Shown here piece after piece: positions 25,979-62,403 of a stretch of DNA of 64,000 nt. The notes beneath the pieces are model-generated. The model had not been told where the DNA came from. It worked only from the letters and a program-made list of their open reading frames with translations, and made no database searches. Source of the DNA: a bacterium (lineage in GTDB: Bacteria; Electryoneota; Electryoneia; Electryoneales; Electryoneaceae); NCBI GenBank assembly GCA_963675295.2, contig CAXXKJ010000002.1, positions 4,160,001-4,224,000 of the forward strand, read 5' to 3'. Made by a program: the position numbers and the translations under genes. Each line of letters starts with the position of its first letter. Position 1 is the first letter of the stretch.

Positions 25979-26024
25979 GTGCGCCATCAGGGACTTGAAC
26001 CCCGAACCTGCGGATTAAGAGTCC
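25979..26024 (-). repeat. att site: 46-bp exact copy of tRNA-Lys 3' half (distal att)
   Basis: GTGCGCCATCAGGGACTTGAACCCCGAACCTGCGGATTAAGAGTCC identical to 63137-63182. Confidence 0.95.
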
Positions 26025-26172
26025 AAAAAATACTAATTGCGTATCAAGTTGATTTTTAGCTTGTTATCAATCTAAGTGGTATTAAAATCAGCTATATAGC
26101 GTTCACTTTTCGTTCGTTTTTAGCCCTGATCATCCTTCCGAATACCTTGTGATCTTCGCATCCCATTTCGCT

Positions 26173-26193
26173 ATGCCCACCTATTGCCCACCA
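26173..26193 (+). promoter_or_regulatory. Putative integrase arm-type binding site (left end)
   Basis: ATGCCCACCTATTGCCCACCA, identical to 52127-52147. Confidence 0.75.
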
Positions 26194-26535
26194 AAATTCC
26201 AGGTGGTTTCTGCTTTCTATCTGTGTCGAGAAAGATGAGTCTGGACTCTCCAAAGAGGCATTTCTGATCACCACTGATCATCACTGATTGTTGATCAACA
26301 ATCCCGTAGACAGCCGTATCCCACCACATAGTCATTTATTATCACTAAGTGTCGCTAAAACAACATTTTGATTCAAAGGGTAATCAATGCATCTTCCTCC
26401 CAGCAGTTCAAAATCTGTGCTTGGAAAGTTGCTCTTTGACAAGCGAGTCATATCCAGTGTGAAGTGCGAATCTGGTCGCATCAAACAGCGTCACCTACCA
26501 GAAATTGGGTGACCACGTAGACAAGGAGTTTAAAG

Positions 26536-26910
26536 ATGAACGAGCATGAATTGGGTCAGGACACTGAAGAAAACAGTGCTGATGATACAATTAACCAGCA
26601 TCCCGAACCAAAGGATGGAACACAGAGTGCTTCAGCTTATGCTGAACATGTCACAAGTGACAGTGCACTAAGCAAGGGCGAGTTCCTGTTCGGTGGGAGA
26701 AAGTATTACTCCATCAAACGGACGCAGGAAATCCTGCATGAGCGTGGCACAGATGCATCCGATTCCTTCATTCGCGGCAAACTGAAATCAAAGCAGTTAG
26801 CCTCGTACAGGATGAACGGTCGCAGAAGATTATTCATACCCGTTGAAGATTTTGAACGGTTCTTCGACGAAGGTGGATTCGCAATGCAGCTTGTCCCCGC
26901 GTATGAATAA
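26536..26910 (+). CDS. Excisionase-like / HTH_17 DNA-binding protein
   Basis: YYSIKRTQEIL...SFIRGKLKSKQLASYRMNGRRRLFIPVEDFERF; RBS AAGGAG; at island end. Confidence 0.65.
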   Translation: MNEHELGQDTEENSADDTINQHPEPKDGTQSASAYAEHVTSDSALSKGEFLFGGRKYYSIKRTQEILHERGTDASDSFIRGKLKSKQLASYRMNGRRRLFIPVEDFERFFDEGGFAMQLVPAYE

Positions 26911-27003
26911 GCCGTAGAGAAATCAAGGGCGGTGTAGTGCCGCCCTTGGTGATACTGATGGTTGAACAGAGTTGGGCTTTTTTTCAGCGAAACCAAAGAA
27001 TTG

Positions 27004-27561
27004 ATGAGGAACGTAAAGATGGATGTGAAGAAGATACCAGTCCCATGGACAGTATATGTGATTACTGATGATGTGGGCGATCAGGAAATAGAAGTAATCG
27101 TGCAACGGCTTAAGGACGACCATGATAATGATAAGAGCACTAAAGACACGATGGATAGTGCTATTCGAATCATGGAAAACGCACACAAAAATGGTGGCGT
27201 TGCTTACGACTGGCATGAATACGATTTTCTTACAGTCTACTTAGCGCCGGATGCAGTATCGTCGTTTATTGAGAAAGGCGTCTACTTACTCGTGGACTTA
27301 GTCAACACAGAAGAGTACAAACATCAAGTTCTTATACGTCCATTTAATATGGCGTATGTCCCGTACATAAGTGAAGGATTTATTTACTGCCGTTACGAAC
27401 GAGATCTAACATATGAAGATCGAAAAATAATAAATGGATGGAATGGCAACCATCATTGGTGTTGTCAAAGCCAAAGGGGTGCGATTCATGCCCTGGAGCA
27501 AAACAGTCCATTGAGATCTGTTGTTGAACAAGAAAGAATGTTATTGAATAATAGACATTAA
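27004..27561 (+). CDS. Hypothetical protein (low GC)
   Basis: ~185-aa ORF; start uncertain; no recognisable motif. Confidence 0.5.
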   Translation: MRNVKMDVKKIPVPWTVYVITDDVGDQEIEVIVQRLKDDHDNDKSTKDTMDSAIRIMENAHKNGGVAYDWHEYDFLTVYLAPDAVSSFIEKGVYLLVDLVNTEEYKHQVLIRPFNMAYVPYISEGFIYCRYERDLTYEDRKIINGWNGNHHWCCQSQRGAIHALEQNSPLRSVVEQERMLLNNRH

Positions 27562-27649
27562 TATTTATTTCTTGGTTTCTAAAACATCAATGATGAAGGA
27601 TTACCTGGCATAAGAGCTTGTAGGTCAAACATAACCAAAGGAGTAGGTC

Positions 27650-28407
27650 ATGACTGAACAGGTTCTTATGCCAGATCCTTATGCACCAGTCGAACTTCAA
27701 GCACTCCGACGCACCAATGGCAATTCCAGTAGCCGACTTGCTGTGGTGCTCGAACCCGAGGGTGAAGCGAAGGAAGTCGGAATTGTCAGCCAGGATTACC
27801 GGCTGGTTAAAACAGAGAAGTTGTGCAAGTCGCAGAAGACCTGCTGAACCGAACGGGGATCCCCGTCGAAGAACACCAGACATTGTGGAACGGAAAGAAA
27901 TTCCGGCAGCGGTATCTGCTGACCCAGACCACGGGCGAAGTGAAGGTTGGTGATGTTGTAGCTTGCACATTGGATGCAGTCAACAGCTACGATGGCAGTA
28001 CCACCTTCGGCCTGGAATTCAACGCAGTCCGGCTGGTTTGTAGTAACGGCATGATGTTGTCATTCATGCTTGGCGGATTCCGGTTCAAGCACTGGGGAAG
28101 CCAGAACTTCGACCGTGAATTACGAGTAGCGGCGCGTCAACTGGATCGTGTAGGGAATCGTCTTCACATGGTGCTGCCGATGCTGGTGGATCTTACCCAC
28201 AAGCGGATGCGTCGTGCCGACATTCAGAAGTTTTTCCGCGAAACCAACTTGCCGATCACTACCCAAGCGAAGGTGTTCAACGGTATTGAAGACGACACAG
28301 CCTGGGGCGTGTACAACGCGGCAACCGATGTGTTGACCAAGCAGGAACGCTTCAGTGCCGAGAACCTGAACAGGCGTGTATCGCAGTACTTCCTGTCGCC
28401 AAACTAA
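27650..28407 (+). pseudogene. DUF932/DUF945-family phage/plasmid protein, frameshifted at A-run 27809-27812
   Basis: GIVSQDYRLV + NSYDGST...RLVCSNGM; adding one A restores YRLVKNREVVQVAEDLL. Confidence 0.7.
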
Positions 28408-28427
28408 CCGAGAGGAGGTGATCATCC

Positions 28428-29333
28428 ATCGACGTTCTACGTCAATCCCTCATCAAGTCCTACCTGTGGTGCCCTGCCAGCTTCAAGTACCGATACATCG
28501 ATCAAATCCCTTCAGCCTTCCGGTCAGTGGCTGCACTGCATGGCCGTGTGCTGCACCAGCTCATCGAAGAGATGCACCTGGTGAACTGGGATCTGGACAT
28601 CACAGCTCGCTACCGGGAACGGTTCGACCACGAGGAATACCGTGGGGATGAATCGGGCACACCCGTTTTCTGGAAAAAAGACCGTGACGCGTCAATCGGC
28701 GAATTGGTAGGTGAAGCTACCGAAATGCTTGCGAACTACCGCGAGAAGGGATGGAATCGACGTACAAATGTGATCCTGTCCGAAGCGACGTTCATGCTGA
28801 AGGTAGGACGGAACGTCTTTAGTGGAACGGTGGATCAGATTCGCCGTGATGGTGACCGTTGGCAGTTGTTGGATTTCAAATCATCGAAGTTCCCACCGAA
28901 CCAGCAATTCCTTGACCTGGACTATCAGCTCGGTCTGTACGCACTGGCTTGCTGGCGTGGTGTGTTCAAGATGCCTGATGGCACGATGCGAATGCTGGAA
29001 ATCCCACCTGAAAAGCTGGATATCGTGTACTACCAGCTTCGCGATCATATCCCCTACAAGCGCAACGGTAACGGCTATGTCGCTGGTGATGAAAAAGGCG
29101 ATCCACGTCGCTCAACAAGTCGAAGCCGTCAACAGCTGATTTCACTGAAGCGCGACCTCGCGGCGATTGCCAGCAACATCAACCGTGGTGTATTCCCACG
29201 CAACCCAGGCATGATCAATTGCCCTGCGTGTGCGTTCGCTGACATCTGCCTATCGGATGCGCAGGGTGTCGGTCTGTCATCCAGGCAGGTACGATCCATC
29301 GAATCCTTGACCATAACGGGAGAAGCTGCATGA
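28428..29333 (+). CDS. PD-(D/E)XK RecB/AddB/Cas4-like nuclease with predicted 4-Cys Fe-S cluster
   Basis: SLIKSYLWCPASFKYRYID upstream and in frame with the ORF-track start; G.VDQI..LLDFKS, QLGLY, CPACAFADIC; apparent ATC start. Confidence 0.82.
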   Translation: MDVLRQSLIKSYLWCPASFKYRYIDQIPSAFRSVAALHGRVLHQLIEEMHLVNWDLDITARYRERFDHEEYRGDESGTPVFWKKDRDASIGELVGEATEMLANYREKGWNRRTNVILSEATFMLKVGRNVFSGTVDQIRRDGDRWQLLDFKSSKFPPNQQFLDLDYQLGLYALACWRGVFKMPDGTMRMLEIPPEKLDIVYYQLRDHIPYKRNGNGYVAGDEKGDPRRSTSRSRQQLISLKRDLAAIASNINRGVFPRNPGMINCPACAFADICLSDAQGVGLSSRQVRSIESLTITGEAA

Positions 29334-30067
29334 GCAAAACAAGGAACGGTACGCCAGCACGACAGAAACCCGGTTCAGATGAATCGGGCGTTGTTGTCCT
29401 GGATGCCATCAACCAACTGGACTGTATCGACATCGAAACCGAAGTGGCGGCGATGATGGAAAACATCCCCCCGTCGTTGGTTCGTGTTCGTATCGATCAC
29501 AGTCCATCTGGTCGGCATCGCATGTTCATCGATAACGGCGAATCCTACGACGATAGCCAGGAAGACCAGGTCGATGTACCTGACAACGTCTTCAGCGGAA
29601 TCGTTGTGTTCAGCCAAACGGTGAGTGCGCTGTGGGTTGAAGGCGAGCAAGTACCCCGCTACAGCGCCATCGACGGAAAGATCACCAGCGGTGATGGGTC
29701 CATTCACCTGGCTTCACAAGCCAAAGACAAAATGCGCCTGTTCGTTTTGACGTACCTGGAAACCAAGCCGCAACTGGTGGTTTTCAACCTGTCACCGACT
29801 TCCATCAAGCACTGGCGCAACCACCTGCAACGGCTTGCCCGTTCGAAAGCACCAGCCATTGCCGTCATCACTCGTTTCAGCCTGTCGGATGTTCAACGCA
29901 ACGGCTATCGTTGGGCTGAAGTTCAGTGCAGCATTGACCGTATTGTCACGCAGCAGGAACTGGATGTTGCCATGCAGCTGCGCGAAGAATGCCGTCAAGC
30001 GTTTGGAGTGATCCAGGAACAGGATTTTGATGATCCTGGCGATCGTGTTTCCGGGGAGGGCGACTGA
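29330..30067 (+). CDS. Hypothetical phage-type protein, possibly ssDNA-binding/annealing
   Basis: Overlapping ATGA coupling to nuclease; LSPTSIK.W...L...AVITRFSL; acidic C-tail. Confidence 0.5.
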   Translation: MSKTRNGTPARQKPGSDESGVVVLDAINQLDCIDIETEVAAMMENIPPSLVRVRIDHSPSGRHRMFIDNGESYDDSQEDQVDVPDNVFSGIVVFSQTVSALWVEGEQVPRYSAIDGKITSGDGSIHLASQAKDKMRLFVLTYLETKPQLVVFNLSPTSIKHWRNHLQRLARSKAPAIAVITRFSLSDVQRNGYRWAEVQCSIDRIVTQQELDVAMQLREECRQAFGVIQEQDFDDPGDRVSGEGD

Positions 30068-30168
30068 TGATACTGGCACGTATCCCTTGGCGCGAAATCG
30101 GAAAGGTAGCCGAAACAGCGATTGAAGGCGCTGCGGTCCTGATGAAGTGGATCAAGTCGAAGTGGTAA
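30067..30168 (+). CDS. 33-aa peptide MILARIPWREIGKVAETAIEGAAVLMKWIKSKW
   Basis: TGATG stop/start overlap; followed by terminator; absent from ORF track. Confidence 0.5.
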   Translation: MILARIPWREIGKVAETAIEGAAVLMKWIKSKW

Positions 30169-30174
30169 ACGAAC

Positions 30175-30202
30175 AAGGGGACGATCGGTGTCGCCCCCTT
30201 TT
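30175..30202. terminator. Terminator between convergent genes
   Basis: AAGGGGACGA...TCGCCCCCTTTT imperfect hairpin. Confidence 0.55.
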
Positions 30203-30233
30203 AGCCTTTGGAATATTACTTCGTAGCTCGGGT

Positions 30234-32060
30234 CTATCTGACCAACATTACCTTCTGCACCTGGTCCATTTGACCGGGAACGGTCGCGCGCACGAAATAC
30301 ATCCCGCTCGCCAGATTCGAACCGTCCAGTGTGAATGTGTGCGTCCCGGCGTCAACCGAACCCCGCACGAGTTCCGCAACCTGCTGACCCATCACGTTGT
30401 ACACGGTCACATTCAGCTCCGCCGTTTCCGGCAGGCTGACCGCGATCATGGTGCTGGGGTTGAACGGGTTCGGATAAACGGGCAGCAGTTCGTATTCCGT
30501 AGGAAGTGGTTTCGTGGCATTGTTCGCAGGTTCCACATCGAACAAACCTTCCCCTGCCCAGCCGGTAACCTCATTGCCGCCGGCTAGAGCCGCGTCCTTC
30601 GTGAACGGGAAGTAGCCGCCGAACTGCGGGCCACCGCCGTTGGGATTCATCCCGATCCAACCCCACATCTCGTACTCACCGGCGGGCGCGAAGGCAGGAA
30701 TGTCCTGCGTCAGGCTTCCCGTCGCTTCCATGAAAGGAAGCAGCGTAAACAGGGTCTGGAACTGGATCTGCGGGTAGAACTGGCCGTTCGGTAGTTTTAC
30801 TTTTGTCCAAACCGTTAATCCGGTATAATTACCAGGCAGTGTACTTACAATATTGATATCGTAGTGCAGTGTTCCGCCAGCAGCAGGGAGATTGGTTCCG
30901 GATGTCGGCGTGAGGGTAACAACAACTGGGTCTTGCTGTGGTCCGGGTTGTTCCCACCACGTGATGGAGTCGGCAAGCCAGGCTGCTCCGAGCACATCGG
31001 TATCTCCGTCGCCATCCATATCCGCAGCATAGACGTCCCTCGCACCTGTGAAATCGTCATCCACGTTATGTTCTGTCCACGCGGTGCCCTCACCGTCGGC
31101 GTTCTCCCACCATGTGATTTCATAGTCGTTCTGGCAGGCACCGAGTACATCCATGTCACCGTCACCGTCCACATCGGTTGCGTATACAGAGTACGCACCG
31201 TCAAAATCCCCATCCACGATGTGTTCAATCCACGATGTGCCAGCGCCATCGGCGTTCTCCCACCACGTGATGTCGTCAGCAACATCAGCTGCACCAAGCA
31301 TGTCGATGTCACCATCTCCATCCACGTCCACCGCATGTACGGAGCGCGCACCATTGAAGTCTCCTTCCACCGTGTGTTCCGTCCACGCGGTGCCATCACC
31401 GTCAGTGTTCTCCCACCATGTGATGTCGTCGGCCAGCCTGGCCGTACCGAGCACGTCCGTGTCGCCGTCACCGTCCACGTCCGCGGCGGTCACGGAGCAA
31501 GCGTAATTGTAATCAATAGCGACGACGTGATTGTCCCACGCTGTGCCATCGCCGTCTATGTTCTCCCACCATAGAATCTGGTCGTCCTCAGCAGCCGCCC
31601 CGAGAACATCGGTGTCACCGTCGCTATCCACATCCATCGCATATACGGAATGCGCACCTTGGAAGGCTATGGCTACGGTGTGAACGGTCCATGAGGTGCC
31701 TGTACCGTCAGAGTTTTCCCACCATTTGATGGCATCGGCATGGAAAGCCGCACCAAGTATGTCGGTATCTCCGTCGCCGTCTACATCCATCGCGTACACT
31801 TCATTTGCACCATTGAAGTCGATGTCCACTGTGTGCTCGATCCACGACGTACCCGAACCGTCGGCGTTCTCCCACCATGTGATATCATCGTCATCAAATG
31901 CCGCACCGATCACGTCGGTGTCACCGTCACCGTCCACGTCCGTCGCAAACACGGAAACCGCATGGAAAAACTCATCATCTACAGTGTGTTCAACCCAGTC
32001 CTGCGCCGCCACAAAGACCGGCAGCACCAGCAAAAACATGCCCGTCATGAAGTACTTCAT
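30234..32060 (-). CDS. Secreted FG-GAP/VCBS 7-repeat beta-propeller + Ig-like domain + T9SS CTD
   Basis: Signal peptide MKYFMTG..; seven ~51-aa repeats with DVDGDGDTD; YPNPFNPST...LASGMYFV...KVMLVR. Confidence 0.88.
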   Translation of the reverse strand: MKYFMTGMFLLVLPVFVAAQDWVEHTVDDEFFHAVSVFATDVDGDGDTDVIGAAFDDDDITWWENADGSGTSWIEHTVDIDFNGANEVYAMDVDGDGDTDILGAAFHADAIKWWENSDGTGTSWTVHTVAIAFQGAHSVYAMDVDSDGDTDVLGAAAEDDQILWWENIDGDGTAWDNHVVAIDYNYACSVTAADVDGDGDTDVLGTARLADDITWWENTDGDGTAWTEHTVEGDFNGARSVHAVDVDGDGDIDMLGAADVADDITWWENADGAGTSWIEHIVDGDFDGAYSVYATDVDGDGDMDVLGACQNDYEITWWENADGEGTAWTEHNVDDDFTGARDVYAADMDGDGDTDVLGAAWLADSITWWEQPGPQQDPVVVTLTPTSGTNLPAAGGTLHYDINIVSTLPGNYTGLTVWTKVKLPNGQFYPQIQFQTLFTLLPFMEATGSLTQDIPAFAPAGEYEMWGWIGMNPNGGGPQFGGYFPFTKDAALAGGNEVTGWAGEGLFDVEPANNATKPLPTEYELLPVYPNPFNPSTMIAVSLPETAELNVTVYNVMGQQVAELVRGSVDAGTHTFTLDGSNLASGMYFVRATVPGQMDQVQKVMLVR

Positions 32061-32232
32061 GGTGTATCCCCCCCGTTTATCCCCTACAAACACGAATGTT
32101 TTAAAATGATAACACGGGAACCCCGTCAGCATAAAGCCGTTAATTGCGAAAATTGCAAAAAAAAGCCACAACAAGATGCTGTGGCTGTTGGACTTGCTAA
32201 TAAGGAGAGTCTAACTCCGCTCTGGATCACAC

Positions 32233-34608
32233 TCAGCGCACGAGCATCACCTTCTGGACCGCATTCAGTTGGCCGGGAACGGTCGCGCGCACGAAATACA
32301 TCCCGCTCGCCAGATTCGAACCGTCCAGCGTGAATGTGTGCGTCCCGGCGTCAACCGAACCCCGCACAAGTTCCGCAACCTGCTGACCCATCACGTTGTA
32401 CACGGTCACGGTCAGTTCGGACGTTGCAGGTAATGTCACCTGAAGCTTCGTTGTTGGGTTAAACGGATTCGGGTAGATCGGCTGCATCTCATACACGGTC
32501 GGTAGAAAGCCCTCGGACGCTACGGTTTCGCCCATCTCGAATTCACCCCTCGCTGACCATTCGTTGATTTCCGTGCCATCGATCACCGCCGCATTCTTTG
32601 CAAACGGGAAGAAGCCCCCGAACTGTGGACCGCCGCCATTGGGGTTTACACCGATCCAGGCCCACATCTCGTAGTCGCCAGCCGGAGCGAAACTCGGGAT
32701 GTCTTGCATCAGACTGCCAGTGAGGTCCATGTAGGGTGTTAAGGTAAATGTATACTGGAATTGTATCTGCGGGTAGAACGTGCCGTTTGGAAGTTTGACC
32801 TTTGTCCAGAACCAGACTCCGGGATAGCTGTTCGGCAAATCACTGACCACATTCGCATCGAATTCGAGTAATCCTCCGTTAGCTGGCAGGTTGGTGCCTG
32901 AGGTTGGTGTTAAGATGACTTCAACAGGATCGGCTTCGCCACCGCTAATGGTGAAGACTCCGCTGACGTCTGAGATGGCTGGATCATTCACCGAGGCAAT
33001 CTCGATCTCAAAGTTGGAGCCCGTGTCCCCTGTCTCCGGGATCGTCCATTCGTATGTCCCGTCGCTCGGGGTGGAACTGATGATGGTGGAGTGGAATGAC
33101 CCGTTTATGAGCAGGTTGATCTCGACATTTTCGTCAAGGTTGTCCGACCACTCGATGGTATGGGTTTCACCGCGGGCCCAGACCTCGCCACCGGATGGGG
33201 AGATGATGGAAATCACGGGGCCGGGGGTGGGCTGAATGGAAAGCTCGTTGCTGAAATCGAAGATGAATTCGTTGTCCACCGACGTAACCTTGATTCTCGA
33301 ATGGTGGAGCCACTGCCCCTGGTCGGGGATGGTCCACATGAACGAACCATCGCTGGGGGTGGATTCCGCGATCAGATCCAGAAGCGTGCCGGTCCACCAC
33401 TCGAGGCGTACGTCTCCGGTGATGTTGTCGTCCCAGGTGATCTCGTAGGTGAACCCATGGTACCAGGTTTCGCCGCCGAGGGGGTTGGTGATGTGAATCT
33501 CCGGCCCGCTGTAGGGAACTTGCTCCCACCAACTGAACCCATCGGCTCCACGGCTCATCAGGTCAATGTCGCCGTCGCCGTCGATGTCGCCGGACACAAC
33601 TCCATAGTAAGGCTGCACCACTTCGGTGACGAAGTGTGAGTCGAACAGAAATGACCCATCGTTGATCCAGTACGTCAGTTTGTCTTCGTACAGGCCACCA
33701 TATTGGTTCTGGTGAGCCGTAACGATGTCCAGGTCTCCGTCGTTGTCGATGTCAACGACCGAGCGACCATTGGATTGGGGCGCTCCTCCTGGAATATTGT
33801 AATCGGACCAGTCGTCACCTGCCCCTTCGTTTTCGATCCAGCCCAGAGTGCTCTCCGCGGTGAAGATATCGGTGTCGAAATCGCCGTCTATGTCGACTGC
33901 GATCATTCCACCGAAATTGTTGAAGGAGATCGTTACTATTGGGAAAGATGAGCCGTCCCCGTTCACGTTTTCGTAGAGAACAGTATCGTTGTTGCTCGCG
34001 ACAATATCGTTGTCACCGTCGTTATCCACGTCCAGGATGATGATGTCCCTGAAGTCCTGCCAGCCACCATCCTGCAGATAGTGGATTTCCCACGGGTCGG
34101 ATCCGTTGTTCCTGATCCATGTATTGCCATATTGACCCCGAGTCAGGGCGAGGTCCGGATCGCCGTCTCCATCGATGTCACCCACGTCCATAGCGCTGCA
34201 GGCCATAAGATCTTCGGTGATGGTCTCGATGTCCCAGTAGATGGTATCCCCCTGGGTCTGATACCACACCCAGACCGTCGTGAGCCCCACCCCCGCAATG
34301 TCGAGGTCACCATCACCATTGAAATCGGCGACGGCGCAGTCCCGCAGATGCTGCCAGCCGGAGACCACGGTGTGTTCGGCGAAGGAGTCGCCGTTGTTGA
34401 TGTTTTCCATCCACCAGAGTCCGGCGTACCAGTAGGCGTACTGGTTGTAGACGGCGTCCAGGTCGCCGTCCTGGTCCAGGTCGACCAATTCGAAATGCGT
34501 TGTTCCCCCCTCAGTATCAGGGATGGGATGCTGAACCCAGCCTATCTGGCCCAAGACCATCATCGGAATGGCGATTACGAGCAACAGTGAATAGCGCAGA
34601 ACCTTCAT
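32233..34608 (-). CDS. Secreted FG-GAP protein + two Ser/Thr-rich (P.GGE.W) Ig-like domains + Ig-like domain + T9SS CTD
   Basis: DLDQDGDLD-type repeats; PLGGETW / PSGGEVW domains; same CTD as neighbour. Confidence 0.85.
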   Translation of the reverse strand: MKVLRYSLLLVIAIPMMVLGQIGWVQHPIPDTEGGTTHFELVDLDQDGDLDAVYNQYAYWYAGLWWMENINNGDSFAEHTVVSGWQHLRDCAVADFNGDGDLDIAGVGLTTVWVWYQTQGDTIYWDIETITEDLMACSAMDVGDIDGDGDPDLALTRGQYGNTWIRNNGSDPWEIHYLQDGGWQDFRDIIILDVDNDGDNDIVASNNDTVLYENVNGDGSSFPIVTISFNNFGGMIAVDIDGDFDTDIFTAESTLGWIENEGAGDDWSDYNIPGGAPQSNGRSVVDIDNDGDLDIVTAHQNQYGGLYEDKLTYWINDGSFLFDSHFVTEVVQPYYGVVSGDIDGDGDIDLMSRGADGFSWWEQVPYSGPEIHITNPLGGETWYHGFTYEITWDDNITGDVRLEWWTGTLLDLIAESTPSDGSFMWTIPDQGQWLHHSRIKVTSVDNEFIFDFSNELSIQPTPGPVISIISPSGGEVWARGETHTIEWSDNLDENVEINLLINGSFHSTIISSTPSDGTYEWTIPETGDTGSNFEIEIASVNDPAISDVSGVFTISGGEADPVEVILTPTSGTNLPANGGLLEFDANVVSDLPNSYPGVWFWTKVKLPNGTFYPQIQFQYTFTLTPYMDLTGSLMQDIPSFAPAGDYEMWAWIGVNPNGGGPQFGGFFPFAKNAAVIDGTEINEWSARGEFEMGETVASEGFLPTVYEMQPIYPNPFNPTTKLQVTLPATSELTVTVYNVMGQQVAELVRGSVDAGTHTFTLDGSNLASGMYFVRATVPGQLNAVQKVMLVR

Positions 34609-35294
34609 CAGTCTATCCCCCCAATTATCGATCAAGAACACCTTCGACGGTCGCGTCCCGAAGTTTGGTGGAAACTGCGATCCACCCTCAGCTGTTGAAA
34701 GCTACGCCGCATCTAGAAAGCGATCAACCGAATCAAGCGGGGATCGGCATTTTTGTGATTTCGTTCACCTACTTCCCCATCGACCCATATTTTGTTGTGA
34801 CAAGCACTTAAGTCCCCCCCCATTAACTCCGAGAGCGTATTACCCAGGCCTAACATTTCGGTCTGTCACGATTCAAGGGATCGCATCATCCAATGCGATG
34901 AAGAGGATTTCGGCAGATACGAAAGCGCCTCTTGAGCTGGATAGCCTGGGGGCGTGTGGGTGACTGCTGGCATGTTGTAGTTACGCGACATTTCTGTCAG
35001 ATCGGGGTGCCGGTGGAAAATACCCGGTGAGGAAAATACCGGGCTTTCGACATAGACCGAGCCAGGGAACGTTCAGTTGATTTTTTTTTTTTGAAATTTT
35101 TTGGTGGGACACATAGTGCGGTTCGGACGCGGTTTTCCATATCTTTCCCTTTGAAACCTTTCGTATAGGAAGTTCATAGAAAAAGGCGCCGATCTGACCG
35201 AAGCGCCCTTGCTAACTGACTGCCAGCCAAGTAATTTCTGTAGGTCAAGCAAGAATAGTATCCCAATGTAACTTGTCCGCCGGTGGAGGATTAG

Positions 35295-35429
35295 ATGCTG
35301 AAGTGGTCGAAGGAACATATTGAAGCCGTGGACAAGGACTGTCCGGGTATCGCTGAGCAGATCTATAGATTTGAAGCGAACCAACTGCCGGACTGCCCGT
35401 ACTGTAGCTCAGATGACACAGCGCTTGTC
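35295..35429 (+). pseudogene. Small Zn-ribbon-like gene truncated by IS
   Basis: RBS GGAGG, CPYCSS motif, reading frame runs into IS end. Confidence 0.5.
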
Positions 35430-35438
35430 TGTATGTCT

Positions 35439-42558: not shown

Positions 42559-42789
42559 CTTTCTTCCCCTCGTTCTGTTTCGAGTACCGATCCCGCATCG
42601 GTTGCTGAAAGAAGGAGTGGAAATCAAAAGGGGTGAACTAATCCAAAAATTGGAAATGTTACGTCGGACTTGAGTAGAGGAAAACAAAGATCGAATTTAG
42701 GTCAGTATTTTTAGTGCTGGAAGTAGTTCTGAACCGCAAAAACTGCTGGTAGTTGATCCAATCGAAAAGCACTCATCGAATGGGATCAT

Positions 42790-43479: not shown

Positions 43480-43481
43480 GG

Positions 43482-45812: not shown

Positions 45813-46100
45813 TTATATCCTATACATCCCTTTGCCCTGTCGATTCTGCCACCACTCTTCAAACGCTTGTTCCACAAGCTTTGCCTGATGAACCGCCGAA
45901 TCAGGCGACAATGGTAAACCAGATGTTGTTGAGTCATCGGGGTTGTCCGTTTCAATTCGGGGTTCTTCGCTGGCTGGTTTGAACTTCGAATGCCGTAAAC
46001 CAAGAGCTCGAGCTAGTCTAGACCGTTCTTTTTTTTGTTGTTTTGTGTCGCCCCAATCAAGGGACGTGCTGTCAGTACTTCGTGATTTGTGTAGGTTCAT
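45813..46100 (-). CDS. Small hypothetical protein
   Basis: RBS AGGTGAGG; paralogous fragment at 39446-39629. Confidence 0.6.
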   Translation of the reverse strand: MNLHKSRSTDSTSLDWGDTKQQKKERSRLARALGLRHSKFKPASEEPRIETDNPDDSTTSGLPLSPDSAVHQAKLVEQAFEEWWQNRQGKGMYRI

Positions 46101-46249
46101 ATGGATTCCTCACCTGTTTCGTGTTTTTTTGTTTTGATGCGCTGTTATACCGTCCTATCCCGTCAGGGTGCTGTTAGTGCGGGACACGTCTGGGCATGTC
46201 CTTAAGCACGCAGTGCGCCGCAGCGAGACAACACAAAAAAACGAGTAGG

Positions 46250-46536
46250 ATGACCAAAACGTGACAGGAATGACCACTTTTCCAGGGTGCTTTGGTCATA
46301 CTTAACTTGTGTTATAATTAGTAAATACACGGCGAATGACCGAAATGACCGGAATTTTTCAGAACCTTTTATAGGGTACGTATTCTATATTGTTAGGTTT
46401 ATCTAACTAGTCGATATACCAGTTTCTAAAAAAAGTGGTCATTTCAGTCATCACGCTCGTAATTAGCTTAATAGACAGGACTTAAGTATGACTAAACACA
46501 TCAAAAAAAGCTGTCATTTTCGGTCATTCTGGTCAT
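46250..46536. promoter_or_regulatory. Putative replication origin: 12 ATGAC-type iterons in mirror symmetry around an AT-rich core
   Basis: Hexamers at 46250, 46261, 46270, 46294, 46336, 46345, 46437, 46446, 46488, 46512, 46522, 46531; directly 3' of primase-helicase. Confidence 0.75.
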
Positions 46537-48628
46537 CGTGTTTTTTTGTTTTTGTTTCGCCGTAGAAGTGTTTCTTCCGCAGGATTTCGAAGCCGTACTT
46601 CTGTTTAGCACTGCGCGTTTCTTGATACGCTACCACGTGACTGTCTTGCAAACGACGGAAGTAATCCTGATGACGTTCAGGACGTAAACGCATTGACTTA
46701 AGCATCTCCCGGAATTCCATTTTCATGATATGGCTACCACCACCATGGGTTGCACCTTCGCCATCGACATAACCCAATACCAAGGCTTCAGCAACCAGAT
46801 CCGTTTCAGCTTCGATGTTTGTTTGTGCTGAATCGTAAAGGTCTTTTTCCAGATCCGTGATTGGGCATGGAATACCGTAGCGCGCTGTCGATGTCTGTCT
46901 TTGGGCTTCCCATTTCTTATGCCGTTTTTTCAGTTCAGTGCGCATGTAGTGACCAAATCGTTCACGAATTTCATCCTTGATGTGCGGATTCAGCTTCTTG
47001 ATCGCCGGCACCTTGTAGATGAAGAAATTGTTGTGATCTGGACTGGTTGGTTTTTCATCAGCAACCAGGAATACCGGCCTTGGTTCGTTGGTCGTCAGGA
47101 TGATGTTGGTGTTGTTACGTACACGGTACTGCGGCATGTATTTTTCGTTAACGGTCAGGAATTCGCTGCCGGTCACCCCTTTGATCTGCACGTACTGGCT
47201 TTTTTTGTTGATGTAGTTTTCTTCCACCATTAATAGTTTGTTCGTATAGAACGGGGTAAAATTTTGCTTGTCGCCATCCCAGTCAGAAGCCAGGTCAGGA
47301 AAAATGCTAGCAACGATTTCAGAAAAGGTTGTTTTACCGGTACCACGTTCACCTGTTAGCACTAAAACTGGTAGCTTTTGGTAGTTTGTGTAGCAGTACA
47401 AGGCAAGCCAGTTCTTGATGAAATCGCTATGCTGGTCAAAAAGACTATCCAACCATCGATCTACAAAAGCGTTATCTTTCTTGTCCACTTCTAGATCAGA
47501 CGGAATTTGTATCTGTAGACGACCAGTGTCGAAGTTCAGATCGTAGTCCACCTGGTTGAATGCTGCGCTGGCACGTCGTTCGACGGTAAATTCAGCGCTA
47601 GGTATGTTTCGTCTGCGGGACAGGAAGGTCTTAACATAGTCGCGGTTTCCTTTGCTGATGTAGTCATCGCGGACTTTCACCACATGGGCGTTGCTGTCCG
47701 TCACCTGCACGCGCATCAGTTTGTCTTCCAACATGAACATGCCGGGCTCGACAGGATCTTCGTAGAAGTAGTGTTGATCACCGACAGATTGGCAGTGGGA
47801 ACAGTTCATCTCGACAAAGCCCTTCTTCGTCAGTTGTACGAAAGCGGATGGGCTTTCCGAATTCAAATCATCACAAAACGGGCAGTAGCACGGCTGCTTG
47901 TGGTCCTTGCAGGTTTCCAGGTAAGGGCGTAAGGTTTCCAGTTTGAAACTGGTTCGCTTGTTGGGCAAGACAACATCCATGTCATGTCCGATGTATCGAT
48001 ACTTACCTGCCGGTTGTGCGTTTCCATTGGACGCCTGAACAGCTTTTTCCCTGGCTACTTTTTCCACTTCATCCAGCGGCACCTGGAACCAGATACCTTC
48101 CGTATTCACCTTTAGAATGAAACGATCCGGATTCGGGTTCACATTGGGATATAGCTTCATGTGGCGAGCAAATACACCAGAATCAAACTGCGGGAAGCGT
48201 TTCTTCGCCCAGCCGTAGACTTTGTCGGCCTCATCTGGATCCGTGAAGTACAGACCATTTTGCGGATCAAATGGCAGGATCACCCGGAAACGGGGCTGAA
48301 CCCCACGATGATCAGGCTTGTCTTCCAGATGGTTTGTTGATGTGTACAGGATGTAGTTGTGGTCCTTGAACTGTGCTTCGGCAGCTTCAATGGAAATCAA
48401 TCCATCGTCCGCATCAAGTGCTAGCCCTACCATTCCCTGGTAGCTTTCCTTACCACAATTCTGATCTGGATCCCACACGTTGGTTGCGTGGGCGTAGCTG
48501 CTGAATAGTGTTTCTAAGGCGGGTCGATCTAGCAGGTTTACTGATTCAAGCTTGAATCTTGTTACATTGTTGCCATCAGATTTTGTTTGTAATTTCTTTT
48601 CCTTATTAATAGAAAGTCTAATTTCCAT
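46514..48628 (-). CDS. AEP primase-polymerase + Zn-finger + SF3 (DUF5906/NrS-1-like) helicase
   Basis: LALDADDG, YTSTNH, RFRVILPF; CPFCDD..CSHC; GERGTGKTT, LMVEE, VNEKY.P.Y, ILTTN. Confidence 0.85.
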   Translation of the reverse strand: MEIRLSINKEKKLQTKSDGNNVTRFKLESVNLLDRPALETLFSSYAHATNVWDPDQNCGKESYQGMVGLALDADDGLISIEAAEAQFKDHNYILYTSTNHLEDKPDHRGVQPRFRVILPFDPQNGLYFTDPDEADKVYGWAKKRFPQFDSGVFARHMKLYPNVNPNPDRFILKVNTEGIWFQVPLDEVEKVAREKAVQASNGNAQPAGKYRYIGHDMDVVLPNKRTSFKLETLRPYLETCKDHKQPCYCPFCDDLNSESPSAFVQLTKKGFVEMNCSHCQSVGDQHYFYEDPVEPGMFMLEDKLMRVQVTDSNAHVVKVRDDYISKGNRDYVKTFLSRRRNIPSAEFTVERRASAAFNQVDYDLNFDTGRLQIQIPSDLEVDKKDNAFVDRWLDSLFDQHSDFIKNWLALYCYTNYQKLPVLVLTGERGTGKTTFSEIVASIFPDLASDWDGDKQNFTPFYTNKLLMVEENYINKKSQYVQIKGVTGSEFLTVNEKYMPQYRVRNNTNIILTTNEPRPVFLVADEKPTSPDHNNFFIYKVPAIKKLNPHIKDEIRERFGHYMRTELKKRHKKWEAQRQTSTARYGIPCPITDLEKDLYDSAQTNIEAETDLVAEALVLGYVDGEGATHGGGSHIMKMEFREMLKSMRLRPERHQDYFRRLQDSHVVAYQETRSAKQKYGFEILRKKHFYGETKTKKHDDQNDRK

Positions 48629-48797: not shown

Positions 48798-49004
48798 TCA
48801 TTCTGCTTTTTCCATTTCATAGAAAATCCTTGGTTTGTTATCGTTCAAATAGTAGATACGCTTGATGTGATCAACTTGTCGTCGACTGATACCGTATCTG
48901 TTCTGGATGTAGCGCCGTGATAAATCCATATCCAGGGCACGGCATACATTGCTACAAAGTCTTGTGTCTTCCAGTACTTCCGCTGTCGTGGTATGTAGTC
49001 CCAT
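48798..49004 (-). CDS. Small HTH protein (Cro-like position)
   Basis: LSRRYIQNRYGISRRQVDHIKR; RBS AAGGA; divergent from XRE gene. Confidence 0.55.
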   Translation of the reverse strand: MGLHTTTAEVLEDTRLCSNVCRALDMDLSRRYIQNRYGISRRQVDHIKRIYYLNDNKPRIFYEMEKAE

Positions 49005-49565
49005 AAGTTTTGTCCTTGATTTGTTTCACTTACACATCAGTTTCGATTCAAATTGTCCCGACAAAAACCGCCGTAGCGGTATCTGCCGTAGACTTTCAAT
49101 TCTGGAAAAGATATGTAATATCTGACAATTATATTATAACATTTTTCGGCATATTTGTCAATAGCCGGTCAGAAATATTTTCTGGGTCTCCTCGGCCATT
49201 CAATCTTTCATTTGTATCCTATACCCCTATTGAAGAGTGCAGGATGCCACTGCCACAACCGTTGTCAAGTTTGGATTTCAGCGAAGACGCAGGGCATAAA
49301 AACCGCGGATTGCACCGTTTGAATTTCAGCAGAAACTCTGAAAAAACTGGATGAGACTTCCAAGACAAGTCCATAAAAAAATTACATTTACTATAATTAT
49401 TATGTTTTATATGAATTTCGAATCCGTTTCTGAAACTACCCTCTATCTAGGGGCGAAGAGTCTCCCTGCCAGCCTCCCAGAGTCGACTGACAGATTACAC
49501 TTGCGTAGGGGACACTTATGGCGATAGTATTGAGTGTCTTATGTCCCCTCAATATCAGGAGTCAC

Positions 49566-50369
49566 ATGACCATGTTCGACAGACCTGAACGAGACCGCTC
49601 GCTTACAGCCAAGTTCTTGAGCACCCTTCGTGATAAATTGGCCTATACCCAGGAAGAGATGGCAGAGCTTTTCGGTGTTTCCAAAAAAACGTATGCAAGA
49701 TGGGAGCGTGGCAACTATGCACCCAAACCTTCGATCTTGTATCCATCCCTTGCAGCACTTCTGCTGACTGGTTCAGCGTCAACTTCGATAAAGAACGTAA
49801 TAAGAGATTTTATTGGAAAAGAATCCTTACCATTTGACATCAGAGCTAGATTGAGGGCTGGCGATTCGAAATCAGGTCCTAATTTGCTTGATAAAAGCAA
49901 AAAACAGTCCATCATTATCATGAAGAAAGGATCTACGCCCCCAGAAAAATATGAAATGAACAGTATTGGAATGTGGGGCTTTGGCCCAATAGATTATGAT
50001 TATATCACGTTTGAACTATTTCAGAATACTTCAAAAGGAGATATACTGTTATTGAAATTTATCATACCATCACAAGGATTACGACATAACAATAACACAC
50101 AGTCACAAGGTCATTCAAAAGCAGTACAGGCTATTTTAAGTCGAGATGCGATTGTAGCCTCACAAACTATTAATTCAATAGTGTATGATAACAATGATAT
50201 CGACAAAAAAGTATATTTTTATTCTTTTCAATTGGAAACAAAGCTCTTGCCGAGCCATATACTATACTATAAAGTAGAGATAGTTAAATTCATAGAATCC
50301 GAAAAGGAAGAAGAACCTTTTGACAAAATTGTAATTTGGAGCGCTGAAGGAAACATTGAAATACAGTAG
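49566..50369 (+). CDS. XRE-family HTH regulator with unknown C-terminal domain
   Basis: LRDKLAYTQEEMAELFGVSKKTYARWERG; RBS AGGAG. Confidence 0.8.
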   Translation: MTMFDRPERDRSLTAKFLSTLRDKLAYTQEEMAELFGVSKKTYARWERGNYAPKPSILYPSLAALLLTGSASTSIKNVIRDFIGKESLPFDIRARLRAGDSKSGPNLLDKSKKQSIIIMKKGSTPPEKYEMNSIGMWGFGPIDYDYITFELFQNTSKGDILLLKFIIPSQGLRHNNNTQSQGHSKAVQAILSRDAIVASQTINSIVYDNNDIDKKVYFYSFQLETKLLPSHILYYKVEIVKFIESEKEEEPFDKIVIWSAEGNIEIQ

Positions 50370-50452
50370 ATAAAAGACCCACACCATTTCGCCCATGGTG
50401 TGGGTCACAAGCTAGAACGGAGCTTACGCTCCGAACACAGAAAGGAAATATC

Positions 50453-51034
50453 ATGAAAGAAAGTAAGAAACGCAACTTTGGAGGATCAGATCTCCTTGGT
50501 AGGCAGAGCGAATTGCCAAACCCTAACCACAGCCTGGTGACTGTGATACCGGCCGAGATAGAATCGCTCCTTGCAGAGCAGGGATTTGTGACTCTATCAC
50601 AGCTATACGATCGACTTCCGCGCAACCGTGAAAACGGACGGAGACTCATTGGGTTCAACACGCTGTGTGAATATGCCCGGATTGGTTTGATGAAAACACG
50701 GGTGCTAAACCGCAAGAACATGCGCGTGTTGGACCGGGACATGGTTGAGTGGTTTTTCAGGGTACTACCAACCGGACAGCGGGAGTTTCAACTGATCCAC
50801 GAGAGCTTTCGGGATAACCACTGGTATATAGGTGAGTCGGATGAGTTCAACAAGCCGGCGGGTAGATCCCGGGCTGAAAACCTAAGACTGCACAGAGAAA
50901 GGGAAAAACTCGCGACCAAGTATTGTAACCTCGTTAACGATATCCTGCCTGACTTGGAAGAAAATCGGCTCAGCGAAGACGATGTCCTGGAAAGCCTTAA
51001 GCCACTTGAATCCGAAGTTCGCCAGCTGGTATAA
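50453..51034 (+). CDS. Hypothetical protein upstream of integrase
   Basis: 193-aa ORF with RBS AAGGA. Confidence 0.6.
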   Translation: MKESKKRNFGGSDLLGRQSELPNPNHSLVTVIPAEIESLLAEQGFVTLSQLYDRLPRNRENGRRLIGFNTLCEYARIGLMKTRVLNRKNMRVLDRDMVEWFFRVLPTGQREFQLIHESFRDNHWYIGESDEFNKPAGRSRAENLRLHREREKLATKYCNLVNDILPDLEENRLSEDDVLESLKPLESEVRQLV

Positions 51035-51063
51035 GAACATGTAAGCGAACCGAGGAGACGATT

Positions 51064-52119
51064 ATGGCTTGGCTAGAGCGGAAGGAAACGAAATCCGGAC
51101 GCAGAACTTGGTACGTCCGATTCTGGAAACCGGACGGAAGCAAGGGCTCAAAAGCCCTGGGTGTAGGATTGACGAAGCGCGAAGCCCAGCAATTAATGCT
51201 GGATTTTGAACGGAAACAGGCACTTGTTGCGGCAGGTCTGGTTACTCCAGACACCATGGACTGCTCATTGAACGAATTTGTGAAAATGCACCATACGTTT
51301 TCGAAAGCCAACAAGGCAGAGAGCACGGTACTTCGCGACGACAATACCCTTCGAAATCTGATGACCTTCGCGGGTAGTAAGATTCAGGTAAAGGAGATAA
51401 ATCGGTGGATAATCGACGATTACGTCGCACACAGGCTGGAGAGAGTCAAGCCTGGAACGGTGAATCTTGAGATTCGACATCTGAAAGCTGCATTCAACCA
51501 GGCCGTTCGGTGGGATTTGATCGGGGACAATCCGTTTAAAGGTGTTAAGCAGATCAGAATTCCACAATCCGACGTTCCGAAATTCCTTGATCAAGGACAG
51601 ATCGAGCAACTCTTAGCTGTAATGGTGTCAGATCCGTTACTGCCCTTAGTAAGATTCTATCTATTTACGGGCGCCAGACTTCGCGAAGGTGTTTATCTAC
51701 GGGGAGACGATCTTGATTTTGACCGCAAGATTATTCTGTTCCGTGGTCGTTGGACGAAAAGCAAACGCAATAGAATCCTACCTTTCGGCCAACTCCCCGA
51801 GTTAGAATCATTGCTGCTTGGGCAAAGTCCCAAACAGGATTTCCCAGTATTCCACTCGGTAAAGGGATCTGACACCATGTGGAACATTCATTGGGTGGGG
51901 CACAGGATCAGCGAAATGTTTAACAGGATCGGCATCCCTTGGGCAACTACGCATACCCTCAGGCACACCTTCGCTTCGCATTTGGTAATGCAGGGCGTAG
52001 AGCTTTTCACTGTTTCTAGGCTGCTGGGGCACTCTTCCGTCACGATTACCGAGCGGCATTACGCACACCTAGCACCTGGTCATGCAGAACGGGCAATCGC
52101 GAAGCTCCCTTATCGCTAG
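51064..52119 (+). CDS. Tyrosine recombinase/integrase
   Basis: TGARLRE, TKSKR, HTLRHTFAS, LLGHS, HYAH; N-terminal arm-binding-like WYVRFW. Confidence 0.95.
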   Translation: MAWLERKETKSGRRTWYVRFWKPDGSKGSKALGVGLTKREAQQLMLDFERKQALVAAGLVTPDTMDCSLNEFVKMHHTFSKANKAESTVLRDDNTLRNLMTFAGSKIQVKEINRWIIDDYVAHRLERVKPGTVNLEIRHLKAAFNQAVRWDLIGDNPFKGVKQIRIPQSDVPKFLDQGQIEQLLAVMVSDPLLPLVRFYLFTGARLREGVYLRGDDLDFDRKIILFRGRWTKSKRNRILPFGQLPELESLLLGQSPKQDFPVFHSVKGSDTMWNIHWVGHRISEMFNRIGIPWATTHTLRHTFASHLVMQGVELFTVSRLLGHSSVTITERHYAHLAPGHAERAIAKLPYR

Positions 52120-52126
52120 CGCGGCA

Positions 52127-52147
52127 ATGCCCACCTATTGCCCACCA
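52127..52147 (+). promoter_or_regulatory. Putative integrase arm-type binding site (right end)
   Basis: ATGCCCACCTATTGCCCACCA identical to 26173-26193. Confidence 0.75.
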
Positions 52148-52155
52148 GCACAGAA

Positions 52156-52186
52156 AGGGGGTTAACGCTATTAAGCGTAAACCCCT
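52156..52186. terminator. Element-supplied terminator next to att
   Basis: AGGGGGTTAACGC-TATTAA-GCGTAAACCCCT hairpin. Confidence 0.65.
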
Positions 52187-52193
52187 GTTTTTA

Positions 52194-52236
52194 CTAGTGC
52201 GCCATCAGGGACTTGAACCCCGAACCTGCGGATTAA
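52194..52236 (-). repeat. Middle att site: 43-bp copy of tRNA-Lys 3' half
   Basis: CTAGTGCGCC...GCGGATTAA identical to 63134-63176, diverges at the anticodon loop. Confidence 0.93.
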
Positions 52237-62400: not shown

Positions 62401-62403
62401 GGA

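Follow-up and report, generated by a model that had tools for sequence, protein, structure and literature searches.

A cargo-carrying island at a tRNA-Lys gene of an Electryoneaceae bacterium and its relatives: a candidate family of integrative, replicating elements without capsid or conjugation genes

The stretch of DNA analysed here, hereafter the window, comprises 64,000 nucleotides from the genome of an Electryoneaceae bacterium (GenBank assembly GCA_963675295.2, contig CAXXKJ010000002.1, positions 4,160,001 to 4,224,000). Its central feature is a 26.2-kb island of low guanine-plus-cytosine (GC) content, island A (positions 25979–52236), that is flanked by exact repeats of the tRNA-Lys(CTT) 3' end. 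The original prediction, made from the sequence alone, had described this interval as a satellite-like replicating island. Its boundaries were confirmed by the tRNA copies at both ends and by the GC content, which is 0.59–0.63 left of 26 kb, 0.41–0.57 from there to the tRNA gene, and approximately 0.58–0.59 past it. The direct repeats that had been proposed as attachment (att) sites are also real, with the correction that they are the 3' end of the tRNA itself and that a third copy is found within the intact gene at 63.1 kb, the only tRNA gene of the window (Table 1). A 25-nt seed of the att core was detected at three places in the 4.81-Mb genome, all of them at this locus. Immediately left of the distal att is the original terminator hairpin of the tRNA, and a decayed extra piece of tRNA adjoins the middle att. 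The three att copies indicate that the locus is a tandem array, formed by island A and by a second segment, B, which lacks an integrase.

Segment B carries genes for an extracytoplasmic function (ECF) sigma factor, FecR, two TonB-dependent receptors, a two-component system and a PepSY-like protein, and a search for remnants of the core of island A between 52237 and 63136 found none. The motif GCCCAY-N5-GCCCAC occurs three times in the window, against 0.02 occurrences expected from shuffling, and every occurrence adjoins an att copy; these motifs are candidate arm-type integrase sites. A terminator-like hairpin together with this motif is common to the tRNA-proximal end of segment B and the integrase end of island A, so the integrase of island A might move segment B as well, or A and B together. 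In a genome of the same genus (G001), the corresponding tRNA-Lys locus could be recognised by its flanks, 88% identical on the left and 86% on the right, by an att fragment and by the tRNA-Lys gene. This site (L044, G001:C59:23001-42000) holds a different insert of 16.5 kb, with no integrase and nothing of islands A or B, whose genes are exclusively related to signalling: histidine kinases, a sigma-54 activator, a methyl-accepting chemotaxis protein and an 1886-aa PAS hybrid kinase. The occurrence of different inserts at the same tRNA-Lys in two genomes marks this gene as a hotspot with turnover.

Read from the tRNA side (52.2 down to 26.0 kb), island A consists of an integrase, an open reading frame (ORF), divergent XRE and helix-turn-helix (HTH) regulators, a helicase, iterons, cargo, and a module formed by ORF245, a PD-(D/E)XK nuclease and a DUF932 gene. 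This is the gene order that had been claimed, and its first part, from the integrase through the divergent regulators to a replicase with an iteron origin, does resemble the core of phage-inducible chromosomal islands (PICIs) and P4-like satellites. To assign families, 38 proteins were scanned with Pfam and 19 with PHROGs. No capsid, terminase, portal, tail, relaxase or type IV secretion system (T4SS) family was found among them; for capsid, terminase, relaxase and T4SS genes this agrees with the original prediction. Genes for packaging or capsid redirection (terS, ppi, cpm, capsid homologues) were likewise not found in these scans, in which some ORFs remain unannotated, nor were the families of psu, sid, delta and eps.

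Table 1. Features of the tRNA-Lys locus (window positions) and integration sites of the four sibling islands (I1 to I4)
Feature	Position	Strand	Description
Distal att (attR)	25979-26024		46-nt exact copy of the tRNA-Lys(CTT) 3' end
Candidate arm-type integrase site	26175-26191	+	GCCCAC-N5-GCCCAC, 150 nt inside distal att
124-aa ORF	26536-26910	+	weak candidate excisionase
199-aa ORF	26962-27561	+	no family
DUF932 gene	27650-28407	+	frameshifted
PD-(D/E)XK nuclease	28527-29333	+	Cas4/RecB-like
ORF245	29330-30067	+	predicted OB-fold protein, no Pfam family
Two FG-GAP repeat proteins	30234-32174, 32233-34641	-	with type IX secretion system (T9SS) C-terminal sorting domains
IS3-family insertion sequence	35429-36934	-	1506 bp; transposase ORFs 35439-36479 and 36476-36862
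N-formylglutamate amidohydrolase (FGase) gene	36901-37467		probably truncated
Two cargo ORFs	37520-38278, 38299-39360		no assignment
Ankyrin protein	39656-40510		cargo
NADAR protein	40539-41033		cargo
T9SS-sorted protein	41239-42687		cargo
LuxR-type response regulator	42790-43485		cargo
Histidine kinase	43482-45692		cargo
95-aa ORF	45813-46100	-	adjoins origin; 72% identity in I3, 51% in I4
Candidate replication origin	46230-46545		iterons and AT-rich stretch
Replication protein	46514-48628	-	704 aa, superfamily 3 (SF3) helicase core (DUF5906)
Small HTH protein	48798-49004	-	68 aa; heads replication operon, divergent from XRE; 96% identical to that of I4
Small ORF in divergent regulatory region	49010-49354	+	common to I4; true start probably further downstream
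XRE-family regulator	49518-50369	+	283 aa, candidate master repressor
193-aa ORF	50453-51034	+	no family; between XRE and integrase genes
Tyrosine integrase	51064-52119	+	351 aa, full-length Phage_integrase match
Candidate arm-type integrase site	52129-52145	+	GCCCAC-N5-GCCCAC, second copy, 49 nt from middle att core
Middle att	52194-52236		43 nt, exact match to 63134-63176 (tRNA-Lys 3' end)
Segment B	52237-63136		10.9 kb, no integrase, between middle att and intact tRNA
Candidate arm-type integrase site	63071-63087		GCCCAT-N5-GCCCAC, proximal end of segment B, 50 nt from tRNA
Intact tRNA-Lys(CTT)	63137-63210	-	integration target
Sibling I1			tRNA-Gln; 17.8 kb; 28-nt repeat
Sibling I2			tmRNA; 11.3 kb plus 2.4-kb segment; 15-nt repeat
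Sibling I3			tRNA-Ser; 60.1 kb; 13-nt repeat at GC step
Sibling I4			tRNA-Leu; 18.1 kb; 55-nt repeat

The 2.5-kb block between 27682 and 30222, which contains the module, has four further copies in the genome, with 82–84% DNA identity. Each of them belongs to a low-GC island that adjoins a tRNA or tmRNA gene and is bounded by a direct repeat of the 3' end of that gene (Table 1). These four siblings encode tyrosine integrases that differ from one another and are only 25–31% identical to that of island A, and each also encodes a small HTH protein and a replicative helicase. The helicase is of the D5_N/DUF5906 P4 type in I1, I2 and I4, with the replicase of I1 reaching 269.8 bits on the P4-family primase model TIGR01613 (cut-off 108.7), and of the island A type in I3 (59% identity). 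The siblings carry an AlpA/HTH_17-type regulator, and no capsid, terminase, relaxase or T4SS family was detected among 95 of their proteins (41 plus 54). The proteins of the module are 85–98% identical among the five islands. At the nucleotide level, codon positions 1 and 2 of the module are 0.89–0.99 identical, and position 3 only 0.60–0.87, with approximately 0.65 in most pairs. This much greater divergence of the third positions points to an old separation under strong purifying selection, and not to recent duplication. The 68-aa HTH protein shared by island A and I4 despite their different types of helicase indicates, in turn, that the elements are mosaics.

The 704-aa replication protein of island A contains the DUF5906 SF3 helicase core, in addition to weak VapE and P4-primase matches, and scores 27 bits on TIGR01613, far from the cut-off. 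Of the predicted primase-helicase, the helicase half was thus recovered by homology, while the primase half was not: in BLASTP comparisons with relatives that have AEP-TOTE or PriCT_1 domains, the alignment was confined to the helicase core, and for the N-terminus only an Atlas lead points to a primase domain. Directly 3' of the helicase gene is an intergenic stretch of 413 nt. The iteron ATGAC[CT] or its complement is present there 10 times in 316 nt, compared with 73 occurrences in the whole 64 kb (1.14 per kb), in agreement with the predicted origin; it is the densest such cluster of the window, arranged as two inverted arrays around an AT-rich stretch. I3 displays the same layout, with ATGACA as its iteron. 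The co-variation of the iteron sequence with the initiator between island A and I3 argues for this region being an origin.

Contigs assembled from public sequencing runs were also inspected; runs X5 to X8 were used (X8 from a second sample), and X1 to X4, with 5–8% of the sampled words, were left out. Per-contig k-mer depth was obtained for X5 to X7, all from one sample, on a host-flank contig and six island contigs covering positions 25001–47221. From the flank towards 47 kb, the depths were 59.8, 79.2, 88.8, 91.3, 98.5, 108.2 and 121.2 in X6, and 72.1, 70.3, 87, 98.5, 98.4, 127.1 and 139.3 in X7. Of the raised coverage that had been suggested as a check, these two runs gave a hint, with depth rising from about flank level at attR to about twice as much near the origin; X5 was nearly flat (40, 40, 41.8, 40.7, 40.9, 41.1 and 46.7). 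With six contigs from one sample, depth followed position, with a rho of 1.0 (X6) and 0.94 (X7), but not GC content, with a rho of −0.2 and −0.09, respectively. Such a gradient would fit an origin that fires in the integrated state, and gives a weak hint of it. A loose contig end at 26173, considered as an att junction, proved to be a 24-nt internal repeat of the 52.1-kb region, and the listed contig joints, whose sides measure 21–32 nt and fall within FG-GAP/T9SS repeats, were discarded.

Also common to all five islands is the module itself, for which a role in recombination had been proposed. This is reasonable for two of its three genes, the nuclease and ORF245. No Pfam domain or name is associated with any of the 69 clusters of ORF245 relatives at 90% identity, and none of 30 distant representatives tested matched a Pfam family; the profile recovers 28 representatives at E <= 1e-30, 126 at 1e-10 and 1130 at 1e-3. 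The AlphaFold model (predicted local distance difference test, pLDDT, 83.6; predicted template modelling score, pTM, 0.76) has as its best match among solved structures phiC31 gp3, a recombination directionality factor (Foldseek E 2.5e-3; VIA Z 8.7 over 148 residues, root-mean-square deviation 3.9). The next VIA matches are single-stranded DNA (ssDNA) binders with oligonucleotide/oligosaccharide-binding (OB) folds, such as the BRCA2 OB domain (Z 6.0), gp32 of RB69 and T4 (Z 5.2) and many single-stranded DNA-binding proteins. From this model, we infer that ORF245 is probably an OB-fold ssDNA-binding protein; a function as directionality factor is unlikely, since the integrases here are tyrosine enzymes. 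At E <= 1e-3, ORF245 also matches 50 phage proteins, mostly uncharacterised, and its profile retrieved nothing meaningful from the PDB sequences.

In the siblings, the DUF932 protein has 252 aa, and the copy of island A is broken by a 1-nt deletion near 27808 that separates residues 1–54 from 55–252. The same frameshift is found in the contigs of runs X5 to X7 and in those of X8, from the second sample, and is thus not a polishing error of the assembly. The DUF932 model (pLDDT 88.2) has no convincing structural neighbour: the best Foldseek match had E 5e-3 and TM below 0.25, and the best VIA matches, with Z up to 6.6, were to Mediator, FP-domain, frataxin and MotA C-terminal folds, from which no function was drawn. 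A preprint on Variovorax reports that, following exposure to phage, selection acted on a DUF932 gene carried by an integrated plasmid that also has tra genes (bioRxiv 10.1101/2025.06.20.660599). In the titles and passages seen of the DUF932 literature, neither a function nor a description of the module or the family was found. Taken together, the module would be suited to concatemer formation by recombination-dependent replication, or to the establishment of incoming DNA.

Beyond this genome, the claim of an element family was borne out as well, with 35 loci in other genomes of the Fibrobacterota-Chlorobiota-Bacteroidota (FCB) group besides the five islands of its own. ORF245 is present in 7 of 41 genomes of relatives (its own included); within the same family, 5 of the 15 other genomes have it. 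The 35 loci were found by an alignment search of ORF245 in species-representative genomes, and belong to Candidatus Electryonea, Candidatus Neomarinimicrobiota, with several loci per metagenome-assembled genome (MAG), and uncultured Bacteroidia. The nuclease adjoins ORF245 in 27 of these loci, and seven of the remaining eight are cut by a contig end. Integrases were detected in seven of the 35 and DUF5906-type helicases also in seven, in one case joined to an AEP-TOTE primase domain and in another to PriCT_1, while RadC precedes DUF932 in three Neomarinimicrobiota loci. A metagenome collection provided 197 additional matching stretches; in the 80 that were inspected, the nuclease stands beside ORF245 in 66.

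A cargo-free member of approximately 7–8 kb (L019), adjoining a tmRNA gene, has the order DUF932, nuclease, ORF245, helicase, small ORF and integrase; no distal repeat of at least 11 nt was found for it. In the Bacteroidia MAGs, an integrase and a tRNA-Ser follow directly after ORF245, and in both I4 and a related MAG (L016) the integrase side adjoins the module and not the helicase. The circular gene order is nevertheless the same in all of them, with the integrase and att cassette inserted at three different places, a shift on a constant circular order that fits a circular intermediate. In the equivalent position of I4 and L016 are found, respectively, a 1120-aa frame with a spore-photoproduct-lyase-like radical-SAM domain and an MCM-type P-loop (L015:1988-5350) and a 607-aa MCM-like protein (L016:6062-7885); a permuted form of the element may use these proteins as its replicative helicase in place of the usual one.

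Among the 125 neighbouring proteins of 13 distant loci, one large terminase and no capsid, portal, tail, relaxase or T4SS protein was found. The terminase (L075:13025-14647, Terminase_6N and GpA_ATPase) is encoded in a Neomarinimicrobiota MAG 2.4 kb after ORF245, with no capsid gene, in the sole family member seen with such an enzyme. In another related MAG (L018:2277-4645), the module adjoins QueC, a QueE-like radical-SAM gene and FolE2, with a PDDEXK_13 nuclease nearby, and this cargo looks like a DNA-modification system of the 7-deazaguanine type.

The cargo of island A spans about 15 kb, from 30.2 to 45.7 kb. In its NADAR gene there is a match to PDC-M42C, a candidate defence family (E 3e-14), and in the neighbouring ankyrin gene one to PDC-M72A (E 2e-9); the two (39656–41033) may be a defence or counter-defence pair. 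The insertion sequence is 100% identical to a copy inside I4 and overlaps the last codons of the FGase gene, which is short of about 50 C-terminal positions of its profile and was probably truncated by the insertion. Regarding the siblings, the cargo of I1 includes a type I restriction-modification system together with an AAA protein, and I2 and I4 carry T9SS-sorted proteins. I3 (L011-L014, G000:C2:1460701-1520770) is a 60-kb defence island with a type ISP enzyme, a PLD-helicase, two AAA_15 proteins, NERD/UvrD, DUF2779, a DUF559 helicase-nuclease and a MotB/OmpA pair reminiscent of Zorya. Beyond I2, a second 15-nt tmRNA repeat 2.4 kb further on (G000:C2:1697354-1699733) encloses one gene for a T9SS-sorted protein, a small tandem leftover like segment B.

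Some of the smaller ORFs of island A could not be assigned. The gene proposed to be Xis-like, the 124-aa ORF, has only a sub-threshold match to HTH_17 (E 0.076), and hhalign of the 124-, 199- and 193-aa ORFs against the HTH_17 proteins of the siblings gave no support to an excisionase, with probabilities of 0.1–0.2%. The Atlas lead for the 193-aa ORF, with a score of 0.83, was below the useful range. The ORF at 30147–30587 was rejected as a gene, since it runs antisense to a T9SS sorting domain, which is why it matches more than 100 places, and ORF91 (28376–28651) is probably no gene either.

Considering these results together, we favour, with a probability of roughly 0.55, the reading of island A as a site-specific integrative, self-replicating and cargo-carrying element that works like a cargo-carrying tycheposon or a PICI-type island. 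Once the XRE repressor is relieved, the integrase would excise a 26.2-kb circle, perhaps aided by the product of 26536–26910, or alternatively a 37.2-kb composite of A and B through the same arm-type motifs. The helicase protein would then fire the iteron origin, and the nuclease and OB-fold proteins would process the replicated DNA, in recombination-dependent replication or concatemer formation, or act in establishment in a new cell. Encoding no transfer machinery, the island must borrow its means of passing from cell to cell, and the most likely vehicle would be phage particles or vesicles, as reported for tycheposons and VEIMEs (integrative mobile elements that are encapsidated in virions).

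Several observations weigh against this reading. Neither an attP nor an attB junction was seen in the Logan contigs, which end at the 46-nt att repeat, and terminal overlaps (15–300 nt) were found in none of the 80 metagenome contigs inspected. The gradient was measured as contig k-mer depth in a single sample; such depths cannot be equated with copy number, and mixed strains could mimic it. Putative, too, are the primase domain, the excisionase and the module's role. The check proposed in viral collections was negative: the ORF245 protein and alignment have no relatives in the IMG/VR viral contigs, which are predicted viruses, and by tblastn ORF245 has no match in 50,697 phage records or 72,556 plasmids, nor the helicase in the phage records. 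Finally, DUF932, extremely constrained elsewhere in the family, is frameshifted in island A, and an IS3 element is inserted in its cargo, so this particular copy may no longer be fully functional.

The frameshift and the IS3 insertion, as well as segment B and the insert of G001, which are integrase-less leftovers at the same tRNA, would also be expected of a decayed prophage or integrative and conjugative element (ICE) from which the genes for structure or transfer have disappeared and which has ceased to be an element of its own. This we regard as the least probable of the alternatives and very unlikely: the core recurs without such genes, and nowhere within a complete prophage or ICE, in all 22 scanned loci (five in the own genome, four close and 13 distant), there is a minimal member without cargo, purifying selection on the core genes is strong, and the integrase and helicase frames are full length. 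Hardly more probable is an integrative mobilisable element (IME), transferred as ssDNA by the conjugation machinery of another element from an oriT that cannot be recognised by sequence. The ssDNA-binding-like protein, the nuclease, DUF932 and, among the Neomarinimicrobiota relatives, RadC look similar to the genes that go with ssDNA entry on plasmids and ICEs. The integrated Variovorax plasmid with DUF932 is reported to carry tra genes (bioRxiv 10.1101/2025.06.20.660599). Against it, no relaxase or T4SS family occurs in the five islands or the 13 related loci, the 72,556 plasmids are devoid of ORF245, and the genome, 92.8% complete, has no match to Relaxase (PF03432) or TraG-D_C (PF12696) and a single marginal one to AAA_10 (PF12846, 27.2 bits).

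A true phage satellite of the PICI, P4 or VEIME type, de-repressed by a helper and packaged in its capsids, probably as concatemers, deserves more consideration, and is in our view possible, if doubtful. The PICI-like layout with an iteron origin 3' of the replicase speaks for it, and the nuclease and OB-fold module could generate concatemers. Satellites often carry defence cargo, of which there is much in I1, I3 and related loci, and one distant relative has the large terminase 2.4 kb from its module. VEIMEs are reported to be encapsidated without major capsid genes of their own (PMC9618062), and the Variovorax DUF932 gene was selected after phage exposure (bioRxiv 10.1101/2025.06.20.660599). 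The dependence on a helper that the original prediction had added is, on the other hand, not supported by the data: no terS, capsid, portal or interference gene is found in the five islands, only one terminase was seen among the 125 neighbouring proteins, element sizes (approximately 7–8, 11, 18, 18, 26 and 60 kb) reveal no packaging constraint, and the viral contigs and phage records gave no matches, nor the metagenome contigs any terminal overlaps. The genome has no recognisable complete prophage either. It has no HK97-type capsid and a single large terminase with an adjacent portal gene, of host GC content; within the 20 kb scanned there, no further phage gene was recognised. This pair (L047:8334-11393, G000:C2:8334-11393; terminase 504 aa, PHROG E 1e-36; portal E 8e-28) has a TonB receptor on one side and a MacB/FtsX transporter on the other, and is what remains of a prophage or else a minimal cluster for packaging. 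With no complete prophage or ICE found in residence, a helper would have to come from outside.

A broader version of the favoured reading, which we consider rather unlikely in its entirety, is that the module defines an undescribed, FCB-wide family of capsid-less and conjugation-less replicative islands, present in relatives of Bacteroidota, Neomarinimicrobiota and Electryonea, whose circular backbone swaps integrase-attP cassettes and so reaches many tRNA and tmRNA genes of a single genome, whose origin fires while integrated, which would account for the depth gradient, and which spread by hijacking particles of virulent phages or vesicles. If so, it would be the first satellite-type family of these phyla and a major vehicle for their defence and type-IX-secretion cargo. 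The five islands occupy about 145 kb of the 4.8-Mb genome; their genes include those for defence, restriction-modification among them, for surface proteins secreted by the type IX system and for signalling. Hundreds of metagenome contigs from FCB lineages that have been little studied, such as Neomarinimicrobiota, contain the hallmark module. If active, elements of this kind would be one of the main ways in which genes move in phyla without characterised satellites or tycheposon-like elements. The family also provides an experimental context for three conserved proteins, DUF932, the Cas4-like nuclease and the OB-fold protein, the last of a superfamily without Pfam entry, and with its origin, integrase sites and set of siblings the system lends itself to direct tests.

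When compared with known systems, island A differs from prophages in that no capsid, portal, terminase or tail genes were found by the Pfam and PHROGs scans, and from ICEs and IMEs in that the islands have no relaxase or T4SS family. Islands at tRNA and tmRNA genes are known to form tandem arrays, including integrase-less, cis-mobilisable elements. The locus resembles this arrangement in its three direct att copies, its integrase-bearing and integrase-less units and the same arm-like motif at both tRNA-proximal ends; the concept describes an arrangement and not a family of elements, and is silent on replication or transfer. With the P4-like satellites, the family shares the integrase together with a P4-family primase-helicase in I1, I2 and I4 and the AlpA/HTH_17 regulator of the siblings, whereas island A has no psu, sid, delta or eps and its replication protein stays below the TIGR01613 cut-off.

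Island A also resembles PICIs. As in these islands, an integrase with att repeats is at one end, followed by a divergent regulatory switch and then a replicase, here with a putative primase domain, and an adjacent iteron origin. In the Staphylococcus aureus pathogenicity islands (SaPIs), too, the replicase is followed by an iteron origin that flanks an AT-rich stretch, and defence-type cargo like that of the siblings is another common trait. PICIs have about 10–18 kb, and island A, as had been pointed out, is larger than this typical size, with siblings of 11–60 kb; moreover, no terS, ppi, cpm or capsid genes were found and there is no known helper.

VEIMEs are small elements encapsidated as concatemers in virions that do not encode major capsid genes, and are integrated in marine bacteria including Flavobacteria, as described for them (PMC9618062). 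They have in common with the present family a tyrosine integrase, a primase/helicase, AlpA or excisionase-type genes and the lack of major capsid genes. The family differs in its size range, 7–60 kb, and in having no relatives in the IMG/VR contigs, which are predicted viruses and not raw virion reads.

There is, further, a resemblance to the tycheposons. As described (bioRxiv 10.1101/2020.12.28.424599), these are elements with an integrase, a tyrosine or large serine recombinase, at tRNA genes, with partial tRNAs at their ends, own primases and helicases and cargo, without capsid or conjugation machinery, and with repeated integration at one tRNA that leaves integrase-less leftovers. Island A has a tyrosine recombinase at a tRNA gene, leaves a partial tRNA, and carries its own replication genes and cargo with no capsid or conjugation families; the tRNA-Lys locus shows tandem integrations and leftovers in its three att copies, segment B and the G001 insert. 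The host is from the FCB group instead of Prochlorococcus, this genome holds five elements where one to two per genome are reported for tycheposons, and the passages seen of the tycheposon source do not mention a DUF932, PD-(D/E)XK and OB-fold module. The literature search on phage satellites with Bacteroidota, primase and integrase, which extended to texts other than preprint supplements, returned no description of such a family. A 2025 paper describes elements near tRNAs that combine a recombinase with a primase, tycheposon-like ones and others, found in fractions of vesicles and virus-like particles; their sources span many phyla, among which Bacteroidota is named. Of the claim that the elements are undescribed, what stands appears to be this FCB family with its own, apparently unnamed, hallmark module, while the kind itself is already known from tycheposons, PICIs and VEIMEs. 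Every tycheposon feature that was tested is present here, a likeness established by arrangement and not by comparison of hallmark families.

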